Virus genome (UHGV): UHGV-0080837
Source: a virus
Direction: 5' to 3' (one strand)
DNA length: 29,296 bases
The notes beneath the pieces were generated by a model. It was not told where the DNA came from and did not search any database. It worked only from the letters and a program-made list of their open reading frames with translations. Positions 7,690-23,719 of the stretch are shown in pieces. The translations under genes and the position numbers were made by a program. Numbering within the stretch: position 1 is the first letter of the stretch; each line of letters starts with the position of its first letter.

Positions 7690-8106
7690 TTAATAAGAGA
7701 AATATACCGTTGCAACACTGTTATATTGGTCGAACGAAATAGCATTTACTTCATAGCTGGTGGGCAGCTTCTTACCAAGAATGTAGCCAGGCCATGAGTT
7801 CCACGGAATTTCTGTACGGTCGTCGTCTTGCCACATTACGCAACCAAGAGAGCCAACCATTTCACCATATCGCTTGCCACAAGTAACAAAGCCGATATTC
7901 GGCTTTTCTTGTGTTGCTGATACCATGGTGGTATTGGCAGATGCATTGATTGCAGTACGCCGCGCTTGCTCGCTAGCGATAGAAGCATTTACTGCCGCCG
8001 TGGTCGCTGCTGTTGCCGCCGCTCCAGCGGCAACAACTGACGCGTGGGATAAATGACTGGCTGATAACATAGCCAGAAAAATAATAGCTCTTTGAAATTT
8101 AGCCAT
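7690..8106 (-). CDS. secreted protein with N-terminal signal peptide
   Basis: Within track ORF 7690..8184; the internal ATG at 8106 gives MAKFQRAIIFLAMLSASHLSHA (a typical Sec signal) followed by an Ala/Thr-rich linker. Confidence 0.45.
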   Translation of the reverse strand: MAKFQRAIIFLAMLSASHLSHASVVAAGAAATAATTAAVNASIASEQARRTAINASANTTMVSATQEKPNIGFVTCGKRYGEMVGSLGCVMWQDDDRTEIPWNSWPGYILGKKLPTSYEVNAISFDQYNSVATVYFSY

Positions 8107-15705: not shown

Positions 15706-16284
15706 ATGCAGAAACAGAGCTATTGGGAGAAACAGAGACAAAAAGCCATGCAAAAATTGGCTGACCCAGCCTGGCGAGAGGAACAAAGGGCAAAGCGCCT
15801 TCAACAAGCTCAACGCCAGCAGCAACGAGCGAGAGAAAAAGCCGCATCGCCTGAATATCGGCAAAAGAGAATTGAAAAAGCAAAGCAATATGACCAGCGG
15901 AGAAAAGAGAAAGCTGTATCCACTCCGTCCAAAAAAACACGCACGTCACGCGGCCTGAAGGGCAGATCACTCACAGCCGATGAACGCCGGATACAGACCG
16001 CTATCGGTACTCTCCCCTGCATTGCCTGCCATATTCACGGGCAACATAGCCCAGTGGTATCCCTGCACCATATCTTCGGGAGAACGGCAGAGAACGCGCA
16101 TAAATATGTCCTCCCTTTGTGTAAATGGCACCACCAGTACGCAGCGCCAGCCGAGGTCCGAGAACAATATCCCTGGCTGGTCCCTGTTCATGCTGACGGA
16201 AAAATAGGCGGAAAAGCAGATTTCATGCGGCACAATGCCGATGAAATGGCGTTGTATCAGATGGCGATTGAATTGATAAATTAG
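15706..16284 (+). CDS. ref: Ref-like HNH-family nuclease (P1 recombination enhancement function type)
   Basis: 192-aa ORF with a long, highly charged K/R/Q/E-rich N-terminal region followed by a Cys/His core (CIACHIHG ... SLHHI ... LPLCKWHH), matching the known architecture of P1 Ref. AAGAGG RBS. Confidence 0.55.
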   Translation: MQKQSYWEKQRQKAMQKLADPAWREEQRAKRLQQAQRQQQRAREKAASPEYRQKRIEKAKQYDQRRKEKAVSTPSKKTRTSRGLKGRSLTADERRIQTAIGTLPCIACHIHGQHSPVVSLHHIFGRTAENAHKYVLPLCKWHHQYAAPAEVREQYPWLVPVHADGKIGGKADFMRHNADEMALYQMAIELIN

Positions 16285-16783: not shown

Positions 16784-16888
16784 AATACTGACTGTTGCGC
16801 CCTGACATTATCGTGGGGTATATTTCTACGGCACCTTAGAAAAACGGGTGCCGGGATTGGTCTCCCGGTAATGTCAAAGGCGACACAT

Positions 16889-16916
16889 AGACGCCACAAG
16901 CGTCTTTTTTGTTGTC
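16889..16916 (+). terminator. hairpin plus T-run (attenuator or terminator-like) inside the immI-like leader
   Basis: AGACGC CACAA GCGTCT followed by TTTTTTGTT at 16889-16913. Confidence 0.35.
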
Positions 16917-16924
16917 GGCGCACT

Positions 16925-17010
16925 CGCACACCTATCAATGGTGGGCTGTGTGGTGGCTTCTTCGGAAGCGCCGGTTCCCTTTGACGCCGGTAAGACCAAC
17001 TCCACACAGT
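16925..17010 (+). ncRNA. c4: candidate c4-like antisense RNA (P1 immI type); boundaries approximate
   Basis: Contains CCCTTTGAC (16977-16985) and AGACCAA (16994-17000), antiparallel complements of GTCAAAGG and TTGGTCT, which occur twice downstream/upstream as direct repeats. Also a GCUUC-UUCG-GAAGC tetraloop hairpin (16956-16969). Confidence 0.4.
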
Positions 17011-17074
17011 CCACCGCCAGTAAGATTGGTCTCTTCGGCGGTGGTATCGTTCACTGTCAAAGGAGGCTGCCAAT

Positions 17075-17290
17075 ATGGCTACTATCCCTACCCCAACTCA
17101 TTCTGAATTTATCTGGCGTTTCTATTCCTGCCAAAAACACCTGTATATCTGCGTCATGGCTGCAACCGAAGCAGAAGCTCGTTCATACCTTCCTGAAGAA
17201 CCCTGCATTTTTGCCGCACGCTTCACTCTTGATGCGATGGAGATCCTCAATTACTGGAATCTGCCAATGAACTGCGTGGAGGTGCACTGA
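17075..17290 (+). CDS. icd: Icd-like small protein (host cell division inhibitor family)
   Basis: 71-aa ORF; pattern IWRFYS ... AATEAEARSYLPEEPCIFAARF resembles Icd-like proteins. Its RBS AGGAGG (17061-17066) is part of the b2 antisense target; its stop overlaps the ant ATG (TGATG at 17288-17292). Confidence 0.5.
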   Translation: MATIPTPTHSEFIWRFYSCQKHLYICVMAATEAEARSYLPEEPCIFAARFTLDAMEILNYWNLPMNCVEVH

Positions 17291-18231
17291 TGAATCTGTC
17301 CATCTCTCAAAAAGCGACAATGACCAGTATTGAGATCGCGGAACTGGTAGGTAAGCGTCATGATAATGTGAAGCGTACCATTGAAGTATTAACTAAAGGT
17401 GGTGTCATTCAATTTCCTCAAATTGAGGAAATTGAAAATAAACAATCAGTTGGCCCTCGTCGATTTTCCAAGGCTTACATCTTTGAAGGCGAACAAGGAA
17501 AACGAGACAGCATTATTGTCGTCGCGCAGCTCTCTCCCGAATTCACCGCCCGGCTGGTGGACCGCTGGCGCGAACTGGAGAGTGCCAAAGTACAGTTAAA
17601 ATCAAAAGCCGAAATTCTGGCTGAAATGGCGCAAATGCATCTTGAGCATGAACGCCGGATCAACGCCGTTAATGCCCAGGTAGCCGAAGTATCGGCACAA
17701 GTGTCCAAAGTCGCTGAAACCGTCGAGCAAATAAAGAAAGGCAATATGCCGGAAGGCTACATTGGCTACCGCCAGTTGGCGGCGAAATGTGGCCTGACTG
17801 AAGCCAAATGTCGCAACCTGGTTAACGCTTACCGGATTCCCACCGATACACATGAGTTTTTGACCCCCGATGGCTTGCTTGCGCGACGCTCCATTGTGGC
17901 TCTGGCCCCCTTCCGGAAAGCCTTCAAGCAGGTTATGTCGGAGGCAGAACCACGCAACAAACGCTGGTATCATCCCAAGATGGGGCTGTTTCAGGCAATC
18001 CATCATCCTTTACCGGAAATCCCAAAAGATAATCTGTCACTGCATACCGCCAGAGAGAAGATCAGAAGTGGATATGCAACGGTATGCCGTCGCGCCTCAT
18101 GGTCTGAAGGTGTATGGGTATGGCCCGAAGGCGGATCAAGGAAGCACTGGCGCACTATCCGGGATGGGAAAATCCATGCTATTGATTTAGCGCCAGAGGA
18201 TATGGTTGCTATGGACTGGATTGTTAGTTAA
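17290..18231 (+). CDS. ant: antirepressor (Rha/Ant N-terminal domain) with C-terminal DUF2829-like domain
   Basis: N-terminus TSIEIAELVGKRHDNVKRTIEVL is a typical Rha/Ant-type HTH start. C-terminal ~60 aa (SGYATVCRRASW ... WVWPEGG ... IHAIDLAPEDMVAMDWIVS) parallel the DUF2829 domain at 2588..3265. Confidence 0.6.
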   Translation: MNLSISQKATMTSIEIAELVGKRHDNVKRTIEVLTKGGVIQFPQIEEIENKQSVGPRRFSKAYIFEGEQGKRDSIIVVAQLSPEFTARLVDRWRELESAKVQLKSKAEILAEMAQMHLEHERRINAVNAQVAEVSAQVSKVAETVEQIKKGNMPEGYIGYRQLAAKCGLTEAKCRNLVNAYRIPTDTHEFLTPDGLLARRSIVALAPFRKAFKQVMSEAEPRNKRWYHPKMGLFQAIHHPLPEIPKDNLSLHTAREKIRSGYATVCRRASWSEGVWVWPEGGSRKHWRTIRDGKIHAIDLAPEDMVAMDWIVS

Positions 18232-18239
18232 TTACTGTT

Positions 18240-18266
18240 GCCCCGGCCAGGTCGGGGCTTTAATTT
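18240..18266 (+). terminator. intrinsic terminator after ant
   Basis: Stem GCCCCG (18240-18245) / CGGGGC (18253-18258), followed by TTTAATTT. Confidence 0.5.
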
Positions 18267-18267
18267 A

Positions 18268-19143
18268 CTAGTCCTGCTGACAATTCAGGAACATAAACGC
18301 ACGTTTGTCCGTTAAATCCGTAACATAATATTCACGAATACCATTCGGTTTTATGCGGCGAGCATACACAAACTTATGAACTGGCTGGTCGCTGCCATAA
18401 CTAACCTCAGTGCGAAATTCATCGACCGTGCTACCATCCTTTTCTGTCTCTTTGCGTATCAGCTTATTGTTCAGAACTGGTTGAGTCTCATCCATTCCGC
18501 TAAATGCATCTTGCCCGGTACTATTACCCCGGTTGCCACGTGGTAAATCCCACGAGAAATAAGTCCCATAGTCTGTAATTACCTGATCCCACGCCCCGGC
18601 TTCATCCATATAATGACTACGCTTCCCTTGGTATGTTACGTCAACCTTACAGGAAAACGTTGGCGCGCTATTACTTGCAGCAGAGGCCGTTGAAGATTGT
18701 GTAACACTGCCATTGTTGGCATTTCCATAGTTCCAGCCATCATGCAACGCTTTAACCCACAGATTAGTCAGGGATAGCGTAACATCATTCCCCAGCGCCT
18801 GGCTGATTCGAAGCCTCTGTATCCGACGCAACCCATACTCATAGGCTTCATCGTCATTAATCACTCGCCCACGTTGAGCGGCTACCACCCCAGATTGCCA
18901 CGCACGATTAATTTCACGAATAAGATACACTTGTGGATCAACTCCGTATCTGTTGTATTCATAGTAAAGGCTCATTGCGCCATGTTGGCTCTGGTATTCA
19001 TTAGCCCATGATATAACCGCGTTTCTTCCATAATCCGCGAGCGCAGAATGACTTGACAGAAGAAGAGCAACGCCAACAGTCTTCAGTAATTTGAATCGGA
19101 ATAACTTTTTAATAATACGATTGGGAAATATGTTTTTGCTCAC
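18268..19143 (-). CDS. secreted protein of unknown function (signal peptide), moron-like
   Basis: 291-aa ORF on the opposite strand to its neighbours. N-terminus KLLKTVGVALLLSSHSALA is a Sec signal; Ser/Thr/Asn-rich middle. Own upstream region at 19144-19370. Confidence 0.5.
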   Translation of the reverse strand: MSKNIFPNRIIKKLFRFKLLKTVGVALLLSSHSALADYGRNAVISWANEYQSQHGAMSLYYEYNRYGVDPQVYLIREINRAWQSGVVAAQRGRVINDDEAYEYGLRRIQRLRISQALGNDVTLSLTNLWVKALHDGWNYGNANNGSVTQSSTASAASNSAPTFSCKVDVTYQGKRSHYMDEAGAWDQVITDYGTYFSWDLPRGNRGNSTGQDAFSGMDETQPVLNNKLIRKETEKDGSTVDEFRTEVSYGSDQPVHKFVYARRIKPNGIREYYVTDLTDKRAFMFLNCQQD

Positions 19144-19371
19144 TTTTCAACCTTTCACCACAAATCAAGACTAACAACCCAATAATAATAACTAACCACT
19201 CTGTTTTTTTGATAAGCACCAAATCGTTTACAAAAAAAATAGCAAATGACTATTGACACTATTCTGGAAATCACAAACTGCACATAATCCATCGCGCTAA
19301 CGGCTCCCGTTGAAGGTTCTTTTGACGATTAACTTTCAGCCGAAGCGCGGTAGGGAGTCATAACGCCAAAG

Positions 19372-19397
19372 CAGGCCGCCATGTGCGGCCTTTTTTT
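19372..19397 (+). terminator. intrinsic-terminator-like hairpin plus T7 in the leader of the 19425 gene
   Basis: AGGCCGC CATGT GCGGCCT followed by TTTTTTT, ending 27 nt upstream of the ATG at 19425. No + strand gene lies upstream. Confidence 0.5.
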
Positions 19398-19424
19398 GTA
19401 TCCGTCATCCGTGGAGGAAGGACA

Positions 19425-20078
19425 ATGGAAAAGATCGCAATATTCAGCCTGACCACCAGCAAGCCTCAAATGCTCACTGCAATACTGAAAGACGGTGCTC
19501 TCATTATTAACGAAGTAAAACCCCTTCCCGCGTCAGCATTGGAGCAAAAGCAAAAAATTCCTCCAGCTATAGCAGCCCTGCGGAAAAGCAAATTTAAGGT
19601 ACTGGTAGACGAAATTACGCCAACGATCTCCGCTGGCACCGGAGCAAGTCAGGTGACTCTCAAGACCCGTCATGCCGATGGTAGAGCAGCAATCATCGTC
19701 GGGATGGAAAGATACAGAGAGTTAAAACTCCAGAAACTATTATCCCTGCCGCAAAATAACAAAGGTGCTTTCGAAATCCCCGACTCTATCGTTGATACCG
19801 AATACAATGGTAACGGAGAAGAAGTCTACCGGGTGAACTGGCAGGACATCAGGCCGGAACATATTCTTATGATCCTGTGTTGCTACGCGACCGTATACCA
19901 CAACGTTGCCAGTGCGGATTACGTAGAGCAGATGACCGGCGCAGTCGAGAAAGAGCAAAAAACAGGCATACTCGCTTCGTTCCTGTCCATTATTGGGCAT
20001 GAAAAAGTTGAAGCAGGCACCTCCCAGCCAAAGTCACTGGCTGGGAAAGAAGTTGATGAAGATACCGTGATACTTTGA
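19425..20078 (+). CDS. hypothetical protein
   Basis: Start moved to the ATG at 19425 (GGAGG 5 nt upstream), inside track ORF 19383..20078. 217 aa, no family recognised. Confidence 0.5.
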   Translation: MEKIAIFSLTTSKPQMLTAILKDGALIINEVKPLPASALEQKQKIPPAIAALRKSKFKVLVDEITPTISAGTGASQVTLKTRHADGRAAIIVGMERYRELKLQKLLSLPQNNKGAFEIPDSIVDTEYNGNGEEVYRVNWQDIRPEHILMILCCYATVYHNVASADYVEQMTGAVEKEQKTGILASFLSIIGHEKVEAGTSQPKSLAGKEVDEDTVIL

Positions 20079-20406
20079 TCACATTAGTAGCTTTGTTAAC
20101 TCCCTCAATACCAGGTAGAAGAGTAACAAAAATATTGACGCCAGTATTTGCGTGGTCAATGAAGCGTTCATAAACAGATCAATTAGCATTAATAATTCGA
20201 ATATAACATCCATGTCATTCACTCCGTTTAATTTTTAATCTAATGCCAGCAAATGAAGCTGGCCCCCGCACAAAGATTAATGAAAGTCACTTGTCACCAG
20301 TGAGGGGATTTATGAACCACATCCCCCTGAACTGGTGGCCTGTCTGTTTCTCACATTTCACACCCTGCATACAGTTTCCCCCAGGTTATGACTGAGAGGC
20401 TTTGTT

Positions 20407-20736
20407 ATGGGCTATAGCAGACTCGACGACAGGTACATTGAAGACGATATTTTTCGTGCGCTGTTTCACCAGGAAATGATTAAGCGGGTATCGGAGTATC
20501 ACTCTGATAATTTCCAGTACACGATAAAGATTGATGAAGTATATCGTTCAGACCTTGCAGCCTACAGGGCGTATGGCAATGCAGATTTGCGCTGGGTATT
20601 CCGGGTGCTGGTGGGCCATGAGTCAGAAATGGAAGAAATGCCCGCCGGGACCACGTTAACTCTTCCTGATGTGGCATGGCTGAGGAACAAGATCCGTGAT
20701 TACGCGAGCGCGGAACCGGAGATAGAAAATGCCTGA
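20407..20736 (+). CDS. hypothetical protein
   Basis: 109-aa ORF; its stop overlaps the next ATG (ATGCCTGA region at 20729-20736). Confidence 0.45.
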   Translation: MGYSRLDDRYIEDDIFRALFHQEMIKRVSEYHSDNFQYTIKIDEVYRSDLAAYRAYGNADLRWVFRVLVGHESEMEEMPAGTTLTLPDVAWLRNKIRDYASAEPEIENA

Positions 20737-21922
20737 TTTCCTGAAAAACCAGGACGGGCGCTATATCACTGACGGCCTGTCCTCTAAGGACTTCACGCGT
20801 TTATTCGACCTTATCAGGAAAGAACAAACCCGTAAGCGCCGACAAGCTCACCGGACGCTGACGCCAGGTAGACTGAGGAACAAATCCGCCGAAGATATTC
20901 TCAAGTTAGGGAAGAAAAAAGGCGGCACGTTCTTCACGCGAGACGACCTGAAAGGTTTCGAAAAGCTACGGAGTAAAACACGCGAAAAATATGACAGCAA
21001 GACGGCTGGCATCACATACGCCCAGCTGGTGGCATCCAGCCAGGCAATCGATATTAAGCGTGCAAATAACGCCGTGGATGACGGATCTGGTATCAAAAGA
21101 GCTACACCCGTATCTCTTCGCCACAACGTGATTAATATCCGCGTAGAAGCATCGGATATATCCGTCCACCAGCACCATATCGTCCGGATACGCTTTGAAG
21201 AATGGGATCAGATGGTCGATGACATCGCAGAAGACGATAAATCAGCTCTGAAAATCACTAAATCACTGTGCGCTGGGCGGGTGTCTTTCGATTGTGACTG
21301 TGGTCGTCATCAATACTGGTATCGTTACATCGCTACTGCGGGTAACTTTGCCCTGGCCCCGCCAAAAGAATACGCCTATCCAAAAGTTCGTAACCCTAAG
21401 CTACAAGGCGTCGCCTGTAAACACGTGATCCACTCAATGACGCGGTTACAGTCCGCTAGTTGGCAAATGAGTATTGCTCGTGCGTTACAAAAGGCCGCAA
21501 CGCAAATTGCATTTGGTGACGATCGCCGCCGTACAACCAAACACTTCTCAAAAGAAGACGAGAGGGAGTTTAATCGCAATCGCAACAGTAAAACAAACGT
21601 TGACGCTGCCAAGCGCGAATGGAGGCTCTATCAGAAGCGCCAGGCAGCTTTAAGTACAAAACTGGCAAAGGACAACGGCAAGATCGACAAGCTACGTGAC
21701 CAATTGACCAGGGCCAGAAAGTTGTCAGACGCACAGAAAAAACGGGCGGCTGCAAAAGAAGCGGCCTTGCAACGTGAGAAACAGAAAAACAAGGAGCTTC
21801 AGCAACGCCTTGCCGATCAGTTCGCACTGAAGAAGCAAGCGTTCATTGATGCGCTTGTCATGGCTGGAACGCCACAAGAACAGGCTGAGAAGATGTTTAT
21901 AGAGTACGTGAAAAAAGCATAA
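20729..21922 (+). CDS. SWIM-type zinc-finger protein with basic coiled-coil C-terminus
   Basis: CxC-Xn-CxH signature (FDCDCGRHQYWYRY ... GVACKHVIH), then a long K/R/Q/E/A-rich helical tail. Confidence 0.5.
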   Translation: MPDFLKNQDGRYITDGLSSKDFTRLFDLIRKEQTRKRRQAHRTLTPGRLRNKSAEDILKLGKKKGGTFFTRDDLKGFEKLRSKTREKYDSKTAGITYAQLVASSQAIDIKRANNAVDDGSGIKRATPVSLRHNVINIRVEASDISVHQHHIVRIRFEEWDQMVDDIAEDDKSALKITKSLCAGRVSFDCDCGRHQYWYRYIATAGNFALAPPKEYAYPKVRNPKLQGVACKHVIHSMTRLQSASWQMSIARALQKAATQIAFGDDRRRTTKHFSKEDEREFNRNRNSKTNVDAAKREWRLYQKRQAALSTKLAKDNGKIDKLRDQLTRARKLSDAQKKRAAAKEAALQREKQKNKELQQRLADQFALKKQAFIDALVMAGTPQEQAEKMFIEYVKKA

Positions 21923-23674: not shown

Positions 23675-23719
23675 TAGTCATTTGATCCTCCGTGATGATT
23701 ACCGAATGCCATAACTATA

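Follow-up and report, generated by a model that had tools for sequence, protein, structure and literature searches.

The opposite-strand gene located between ant and mat in this phage-plasmid is, with a probability of about 0.9, a functional accessory gene that encodes a soluble periplasmic protein with two domains, exported by Sec, and that corresponds to an allele of coliphage D6 orf79 in which the N-terminal domain (hereafter referred to as the head) has been swapped. The window referred to below is the whole stretch of viral DNA analysed, 29,296 nucleotides of the genome UHGV-0080837; the carrier is a D6/P1-like phage-plasmid, ∼92% identical to coliphage D6. The protein was already present in the databases as a hypothetical protein, and its C-terminal half was already included in phrog_13054, a family of unknown function. 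What is new here is the recognition of a two-allele cassette, a confident model of the C-terminal barrel with an invariant cysteine pair and an invariant loop, and the observation that the SimB annotation is not transferable to the allele of the window.

In Enterobacteriaceae, phage-plasmids of the P1 type are frequent vehicles of resistance genes, and their coexistence and superinfection depend on a poorly understood exclusion at the level of the envelope. The sim locus of P1 has been known since 1982, but no mechanism is known for it, and SimB has not been assigned a role.

A single-gene cassette between ant and mat

The gene and its surroundings comprise the following features:

16831-16910, isrK (Rfam match)
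16934-17021, C4 antisense RNA (Rfam match)
17075-17290, icd, part of the immI-type module
17290-18231 (+), ant, last gene of the immI-type module
18264-19252 (-), single-gene cassette of 989 bp, the stretch departing from the D6 backbone
18268-19143 (-), the ORF under study (CDS), 291 aa, GTG start, stop codon included
19425-20078 (+), mat, from its true ATG to its end

An SD-like sequence (GAAAGG, 19151–19156) is located 7 nt 5′ of the GTG start codon of the ORF. Both neighbours are on the + strand, so that the ORF is antisense to ant and mat, convergent with the former and divergent from the latter. An earlier note, made from the DNA letters, had described here a protein encoded antisense to its neighbours, with its own upstream region and adjoining an immunity module. 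This description holds: the region 5′ of the ORF (19144–19252) is specific to the cassette, and the module is real, with isrK and the C4 RNA identified by Rfam and with icd and ant ∼92% identical to their counterparts in coliphage D6.

The limits of the cassette were obtained by blastn, comparing D6 to the complete plasmid pPSS-08-1_2, accession NZ_AP027678.1, which carries the allele of the window (99.7% identical in amino acids, 99.9% in nucleotides). The D6-like backbone (92–97% identical) ends at 18263 and restarts at 19253, and within the cassette the match to D6 is limited to the last ∼385 nt of the ORF, encoding the C-terminal domain, with 76% nucleotide identity. These backbone breaks, together with a match confined to the C-terminal domain, indicate that the ORF and 109 nt of its own 5′ region form a single-gene cassette, replacing a segment of D6. 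At the same site between ant and mat, D6 possesses pmgF, orf80 and, on the opposite strand, orf79, and the first two of these are missing from the cassette. The product of D6 orf79 (YP_009914756.1) belongs to phrog_13054, and is annotated as ‘putative superimmunity accessory function protein, similar to P1 simB’.

The ORF and D6 orf79 share the same locus between ant (immI) and mat, the same orientation, a signal peptide, a Ser/Thr linker and a C-terminal barrel, which is 82% identical over 130 aa (75% over 150 aa, residues 143–291, by BLASTP). In contrast, their N-terminal halves are unrelated, with a helical domain (labeled type A) in the window and a SimB-type domain in D6. Over the entire mature P1 SimB, the N-terminal half of D6 orf79 shows 52% identity, and the D6 protein matches the P1 SimB profile, phrog_14329, at 1.5e-22. 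The gene of the window is an allelic, domain-swapped version of D6 orf79. The two barrel alleles are anciently diverged, with saturated synonymous sites at this 76% nucleotide identity, although the flanks are 92% identical.

The D6-branch locus between the immI module (isrK, C4, icd, ant) and mat is a recombination hot spot. The vicinity of simB has been described as a divergent region among D6-like prophages, in which simB is present while simA and simC are absent, and in pSL26_91 the gene at this site is substituted by five other genes (PMC6799933). The sim region (simABC) is also one of eight hypervariable regions in P1-like phage-plasmids (PMC9603915). At one further locus, L034, the gene at this site is truncated.

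Distribution and selection

The protein has a 100%-identical public representative (P0001, ‘hypothetical protein’), which stands for a cluster of 43 member sequences, and it is found at 99.7% identity on three PLSDB plasmids. At the DNA level, copies 99.7–99.9% identical to the ORF were found in five of 5426 complete E. coli genomes, always on plasmids, and the allele of the window is carried by three of 17 IMG/VR loci. The reading frame is intact in every copy. For the C-terminal 130 codons, comparison with the D6 allele gives a pN of 0.118 and a pS of 0.735 (saturated), corresponding to a dN/dS of ∼0.04; such a value, with synonymous sites saturated, shows that the ORF is a real gene under selection. 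The ORF at 18268–19143 is a real, functional accessory gene.

The rarity of the allele (five of 5426 genomes) and its weak promoter might suggest that the ORF is what is left of a swapped sim-like gene, decaying or no longer functional. This is highly improbable: no copy has a disrupted frame, dN/dS is low, the full architecture is kept at 36% identity in Buttiauxella, and the fold prediction is confident (see below). On the sequence evidence, the selection signal effectively refutes it.

Export signal

One feature is predicted at the N-terminus of the protein:

19036-19143 (-), predicted Sec-type signal peptide, residues 1–36, cleavage ALA↓DY

The n-region (residues 1–21) has a net charge of +7, and is followed by the sole hydrophobic stretch of the protein, TVGVALLLS (residues 22–30, mean Kyte-Doolittle 2.19), and by a c-region reading SHSALA↓DY. 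Four homologues that are only 36–56% identical (P0002, P0008, P0011 and L037 of Buttiauxella) have the same A-x-A↓DYG junction, and this conservation outweighs any signal-peptide score for a single sequence. No lipobox is present, the first cysteine being residue 165, and there is no further transmembrane segment nor any other hydrophobic 15-mer. All the hallmarks of a soluble periplasmic protein exported by Sec are therefore found in the sequence, namely a charged n-region, an h-region, an A-x-A motif, and the absence of both a lipobox and an additional TM. This confirms the 291-aa opposite-strand product with a Sec signal that had been proposed earlier. The mature protein is predicted to comprise 255 aa (∼29 kDa), and to be periplasmic after cleavage at ALA↓DY rather than a lipoprotein.

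Domain architecture and structural modeling

The mature protein can be divided as follows:

18718-19035 (-), N-terminal ‘type A’ helical domain, residues 37–142; four helices in the full-length AlphaFold2 model, pLDDT 75–85 over most of it
18661-18717 (-), Ser/Thr/Ala/Asn low-complexity linker, residues 143–161; pLDDT below 50, no secondary structure
18271-18660 (-), C-terminal β-barrel domain, residues 162–291; matches the C-terminal half of phrog_13054

In the alignment, one N-domain type gives way to another at this linker. Taken as a whole, the AlphaFold model of the full-length protein is of low quality (pLDDT 58), with a disordered linker, and searches with it gave no specific structural match for the helical domain. 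The barrel alone was modeled from an 11-sequence alignment, with a pLDDT of 89.3 and a pTM of 0.85; the model is all-β, with ∼10 strands arranged in a small closed barrel. The only two cysteines of the protein are C165, in the first strand, and C288, in the last, and both are invariant; in the model they probably form a disulfide that staples the barrel. A second invariant element, common to all barrel relatives, is the loop G203-x-R205-G-[ND]-S-T-G210 (GNRGNSTG in the window protein), which is long, projects from the barrel and is exposed, and is modeled with lower confidence.

Of the 276 positions of the phrog_13054 profile, those from 127 to 275 are matched by residues 143–291 (E 5.6e-83), and no other part of the protein matches; it is a member of this family for its C-domain only. 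No match was found in Pfam, NCBIfam or PADLOC for the whole protein, nor in SimB, SimC, Pfam, PHROG or NCBIfam for the type-A N-domain. The 11 C-domain sequences gave nothing against Pfam at E 10, and the C-domain profile, run against the sequences of the PDB, returned only noise (best E 0.21). The mature domain, which the earlier note could not recognise, thus remains outside any named Pfam or NCBIfam family, with its C-terminal half placed in phrog_13054 alone. At the structural level, no specific PDB fold was found for the barrel, and a Foldseek search against viral models gave only uncharacterised phage proteins, with a TM score of ∼0.5. Neither sequence nor structure matched a virion protein (head, tail or baseplate).

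In the model, the fold class is clear, a soluble barrel with a protruding loop, but neither family nor activity can be read from it. The small periplasmic barrels of known families (MliC/PliC/PhiA; lipocalin/nitrobindin/YceI; Cap15) show a general likeness of fold only, at 5–13% identity, with no family motifs and no Pfam match in the window protein. One possibility, which I consider quite unlikely, is that the protein is a periplasmic inhibitor or immunity protein directed against an external or interbacterial wall hydrolase (lysozyme, lytic transglycosylase or T6SS amidase), in the manner of MliC/PliC/PhiA or of T6SS immunity proteins. It would account for a small soluble periplasmic barrel, probably disulfide-bonded, with one invariant exposed loop, and distant relatives lie among small exported proteins and lipoproteins, in arrays resembling immunity-gene islands. 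However, PhiA ranks 23rd among generic barrels, no MliC, PliC, PliG or PliI motif and no Pfam match is present, and no effector gene was seen nearby. In such an inhibitor the invariant loop would plug the active site of the hydrolase, and the function would be lysogenic conversion protecting the host, not phage exclusion. A further reading, which is improbable, is that the protein binds a small hydrophobic ligand (a lipid, an LPS precursor or an isoprenoid) in the manner of lipocalins or nitrobindin and would alter the envelope, the LPS core receptor of P1-like phages being one example.

A rare family of exported barrel proteins

Among 5.8 billion proteins, the barrel is represented by ∼10 clusters at 90% identity, three of which possess a type-A head and the rest a SimB-type head. 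Scanning 1.8 billion representatives exhaustively with HMMER yielded no more than a few additional, distant relatives. A metagenome scan yielded five relatives, all with a C-domain 81–84% identical to that of the window. In P0003, a SimB-type head is found on a barrel 90% identical to the window's, a combination indicating that heads and barrels have been reassorted at the Ser/Thr linker. Other architectures consist of a signal peptide and the barrel alone (P0013, P0016 and P0017), a transmembrane anchor, a long linker and the barrel (P0014), or a different helical head and the barrel (P0015). Every barrel relative possesses a signal peptide or a transmembrane anchor. A search for other fusion architectures with P1 SimB as the query retrieved only near-identical fragments of P1 SimB.

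Relatives of the type-A N-domain are limited to P0002, P0008, P0011 (a full-length type-A protein) and L037. Full-length type-A homologues, 36–56% identical, are located in a P1-like element (L008), in a metagenome contig (L011) and in a Buttiauxella island; from these sequences, the type-A architecture is evidently old and has been kept intact.

The genomic contexts of these relatives are diverse. In an 88-kb P1-like contig (L009), a D6-type homologue occupies the same site, divergent from mat and convergent with a remnant of icd/ant, with one extra gene preceding it. In L008, the type-A homologue (44% identical) is located elsewhere in the element, after upfC/upfB. The gene for P0015 is part of an element encoding a P1/P7 C1 repressor and ParM, while that for P0014 belongs to an integrase-bearing element, in a run of small exported proteins, with a PF12869 OB-fold protein encoded two genes downstream. 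P1 SimC itself matches PF12869 with an E of 1e-3, below the cut-off. P0013 and P0016 each belong to a conserved trio, whose other members are a lipoprotein and a small protein with several TM segments. The sole match in 185,579 species-representative genomes is the full-length type-A protein of Buttiauxella massiliensis (L037, 36% identical), encoded between a type I R-M methylase gene (HsdM) and an ankyrin-repeat gene, with an integrase nearby. As far as these sequences indicate, the barrel family is rare, always exported, and borne by mobile elements in every context examined save one chromosomal islet (L005, encoding P0016).

A kinship of the N-domain with small helical exported proteins encoded beside distant barrel genes, as in a Rosetta-stone fusion, was considered and rejected (hhalign E 0.03–0.5, probability at most 1.6%). 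The proteins concerned, L003 g126, L003 g181, L012 g114 and the N-domain of P0015, have in common a repeated A-x-x-x-G-[FYW] motif.

Regulatory signals

Three features flank the ORF:

18240-18258 (+), GC-rich hairpin followed by TTTAATTT, between the stop codons of ant and the ORF, in the backbone shared with D6
19144-19252 (-), cassette-specific AT-rich 5′ region, 109 nt, GC 36–38%, including the SD
19244-19252 (+), exact P1 late-promoter ‘-22 box’ AAATGACTA, facing mat, 101 nt upstream of the ORF start and on the other strand

The hairpin had been taken in the earlier note for a terminator shared by ant and the ORF. Its T-tract is found on the + strand only, and it is part of the D6 backbone; it is therefore the intrinsic terminator of ant, acting in one direction, and not demonstrably a shared, bidirectional one.

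The 5′ region could not be aligned with the upstream regions of D6 or L009. A consensus scan of the ORF strand identified no sigma-70 promoter; the best promoter-like site in my own scan is weak (ATCAAA-17-TATTAT, 8/12), with its -10 at 19185–19190, 41 nt 5′ of the start. A PWM derived from the C1 operators of P1 gave no site near the ORF. In L008 and L012, a promoter-like site, which in L012 reads TTGACA-17-CAGAAT, comes after an upstream intrinsic terminator, and as read from the sequence this layout is that of a moron-like unit.

The -22 box is identical to those of P1 LPsit and LP26, and is present in two exact copies in the window. An exact late box in this divergent intergenic region raises the possibility of late rather than lysogenic expression. 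The protein could then be a periplasmic helper of the lytic cycle, expressed from an Lpa-dependent late promoter divergent from mat and acting at lysis or release, and not a conversion factor expressed in the lysogen. Modulating a muralytic activity, or protecting the progeny from readsorption, are examples of what such a helper might do. There is precedent in P1, where LP26 and LPpmgL, two divergent late promoters, share a single -22 box and where mat has a late promoter of its own, LPmat; the equivalent intergenic region of D6 has a -22 box with one mismatch, and the ORF side possesses neither a sigma-70 consensus nor a C1 operator. However, the box faces mat, and at the spacing found in P1 (4 nt) the ORF strand has TTTTTT as its hexamer instead of TAnnnT. 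The gene is moreover dispensable, as it is truncated in L034 and replaced in pSL26_91, and distant relatives are found in non-phage islands. I regard a late lytic function as unlikely, and on balance would rather assume that the gene is expressed autonomously from the plasmid prophage, probably at a low level.

A proposed role in exclusion

The earlier note had suggested a lysogenic-conversion factor, possibly for exclusion. The circumstantial part of this idea has gained ground, through the allelism with D6 orf79, the mobile, self-contained relatives and the R-M neighbour in Buttiauxella, while the loss of the SimB domain and the lack of a sigma-70 consensus count against it. I propose, with somewhat less than even confidence, that the protein is a non-virion periplasmic accessory protein for sim-like superinfection exclusion or defence, in which the barrel would be the constant part and the head would determine specificity. 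This reading follows from the allelism with a SimB-domain protein, the position adjacent to immI, the restriction to mobile elements, one case in a defence island, the dispensability of the gene and the lack of similarity to virion proteins.

In this proposal, Sec would export the protein, and cleavage at ALA↓DY would free it in the periplasm. The conserved barrel would serve as a common working or anchoring module, and the exchangeable N-terminal domain would set the specificity. Together, barrel and head would act in the periplasm of the plasmid-carrying cell, and would block the crossing of the envelope by an incoming phage, or another envelope-directed attack. I infer the periplasmic disulfide, expression in the lysogen and the exclusion activity.

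Several points weigh against exclusion. What links this locus to sim is the SimB domain alone, and the window protein does not possess it; for SimB itself, the role given is ‘putative accessory’. There is no sequence similarity to SimC, the sole sim gene with a demonstrated phenotype. The ORF strand has no consensus sigma-70 promoter, and a late -22 box is nearby. A search of PADLOC-DB gave no match at E 0.1. The injected transglycosylase Sit, an obvious candidate target, was rejected as co-varying with the allele type, being 97% identical between D6 and a type-A plasmid; the type-A plasmids are near-clonal, and association tests for such co-variation have no power.

A broader proposal, which I hold to be rather doubtful, is that the barrel defines an undescribed family of periplasmic exclusion or defence modules of mobile elements with swappable heads (SimB-type, type A, and the others seen in P0014 and P0015), the locus being a sim-like one that exchanges specificities through recombination in the linker. 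If true, this would provide the first functional handle on SimB.

Whichever role applies, the D6-branch locus is a site for single-gene cassettes with at least two alleles, sharing one confidently folded barrel and differing by unrelated N-terminal domains. The allele pair provides a clean natural domain swap with which the barrel and the heads, and the old question of sim and SimB, can be probed. If there is no exclusion phenotype, the gene is an ordinary, rare and uncharacterised accessory gene.

Comparison with known systems

Morons and exported prophage exclusion factors include bor and lom of lambda, Cor of phi80 and N15, and Llp of T5. Like these, the ORF stands alone as an accessory gene, placed between phage operons together with a regulatory region of its own, and its product is predicted to be targeted to the envelope. 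As read in the window, the gene has a cassette-specific 5′ region, a promoter-like site that is only weak, and a downstream hairpin with its T-tract on the other strand. The protein is not homologous to any of these factors; unlike the lipoproteins Cor and Llp it has no lipobox (L-x-x-C), and unlike Ail and Lom it is not an outer-membrane barrel.

P1 SimB (YP_006512.1; phrog_14329) is likewise a small exported protein encoded beside immI in a P1-family phage, and its domain is precisely what the N-domain of the window replaces relative to the D6 allele. SimB is however a 111-aa stand-alone protein, its gene overlapping simC, with a domain of ∼85 aa of the disulfide type (DCN...C-x-G). No similarity to it is detectable in the window protein, for which the best BLASTP E is 3.4 and phrog_14329 gives no match.

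The window protein also differs from P1 SimC, or Sim (phrog_14355), with a BLASTP E of 12 and an hhalign probability of 0.06% for the C-domain profile against SimC, and SimC is not among the top BFVD structural matches. SimC weakly matches the OB-fold family PF12869, whereas the window protein consists of a helical domain and a barrel, and D6-like elements have no simC (PMC6799933). In P1, simA, simB and simC are all non-essential (PMC10695390). In the passage of PMC8546580 that cites Kliem and Dreiseikelmann (1989), Sim is thought to act after adsorption, stopping the entry of the DNA of the superinfecting phage. An exported, processed and non-essential phage protein encoded beside immI, SimC resembles the window protein in these respects, and is the functional model adopted here by analogy.

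Sim-related genes in P1 and D6-like elements

P1 SimC, encoded at L002 1787–2581, gave a sub-threshold match over residues 67–159 to the OB-fold family PF12869 (tRNA_anti-like), with an E-value of 1.1e-3 and a score of 19 bits for a cut-off of 23.5 bits. The OB fold is a possible assignment for this classic Sim protein.

In phage D6 (L001), the annotated start (MKLMVLG..., 5' end at 7745–7808) of orf79, the positional allele of the cassette gene, is probably too far upstream, as judged by comparison with its homologues, which begin at MFFIKNGKRF.... When translated from the latter position, orf79 acquires a canonical signal peptide, ending between TFA and YDF. A further type-B gene, combining a SimB-type N-terminal domain with the barrel, was identified in a D6-like contig from IMG/VR:

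L034 5791–6396, type-B gene lacking the signal peptide and first half

Traced back to the nearest upstream stop, its frame opens only inside the SimB-type domain. Such a truncation, found in one D6-like locus, is what would be expected of a dispensable gene.

Neighbourhoods of the distant barrel genes

The distant relatives of the barrel, the C-terminal domain of the cassette protein, are found within runs of small genes without a Pfam family, encoding exported, lipoprotein or multi-TM products:

L003 5716–9052
L005 7078–8513
L013 7503–11475
L012 2557–4432

Two neighbours recur alongside the barrel, namely a multi-TM protein (L003 versus L005, 37% identity) and a lipoprotein (45% identity). 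A repeated A-x-x-x-G-[FYW]-x-x-G motif is common to several of the small exported proteins that are helical. The runs resemble immunity- or exclusion-gene islands.

Sequences flanking the cassette

I identified the following features at the edge of the cassette, on either side of it and further downstream:

16267–16283 (+), P1-type C1 operator-like site, overlapping the 3' end of ref
16831–17021 (+), isrK Hfq-binding sRNA, then C4 antisense RNA
19244–19252 (+), P1 late-promoter -22 box, inside cassette-specific DNA and abutting the conserved block upstream of mat
19253–19400 (+), conserved 148-nt block between the cassette and mat
19373–19397 (+), GC hairpin with a U7 tail, directly 5' of the mat RBS
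23675–23683 (-), second -22 box, flanked by the HigB-like toxin gene and gene 7

The conserved block, whose first bases are TTGACA, is 95–100% identical across all D6-like loci, regardless of the cassette carried, and 81.5% identical in the distant P1-like contig L009, where the pair that closes the terminator stem is changed at both positions (A..U to G..C). It is predicted to fold into a long hairpin followed by the GC hairpin (-42.3 kcal/mol, z -2.5). No Rfam family was matched, with isrK at chance level only (E 0.6). The block could encode an sRNA or, alternatively, a leader with its own terminator (attenuator) that controls mat.

Within immI, isrK (60 bits) lies directly upstream of C4 (75 bits), and both are followed by icd and ant; D6 possesses a second icd/ant pair elsewhere in its genome, adjoining a lysozyme-like gene (record 19271–20917).

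The -22 box, AAATGACTA, occurs in two exact copies in the window, and a scan allowing one mismatch gave 14 matches against 7.6 expected. The first copy is placed upstream of mat, as is LPmat in P1. The operator-like site ATTGAATTGATAAATTA scored 10.3 bits on a PWM from 11 P1 operators, and its overlap with the end of ref matches that of Omat in P1. Compared with P1, the immI module and the cassette appear to be placed between ref/Omat and mat.
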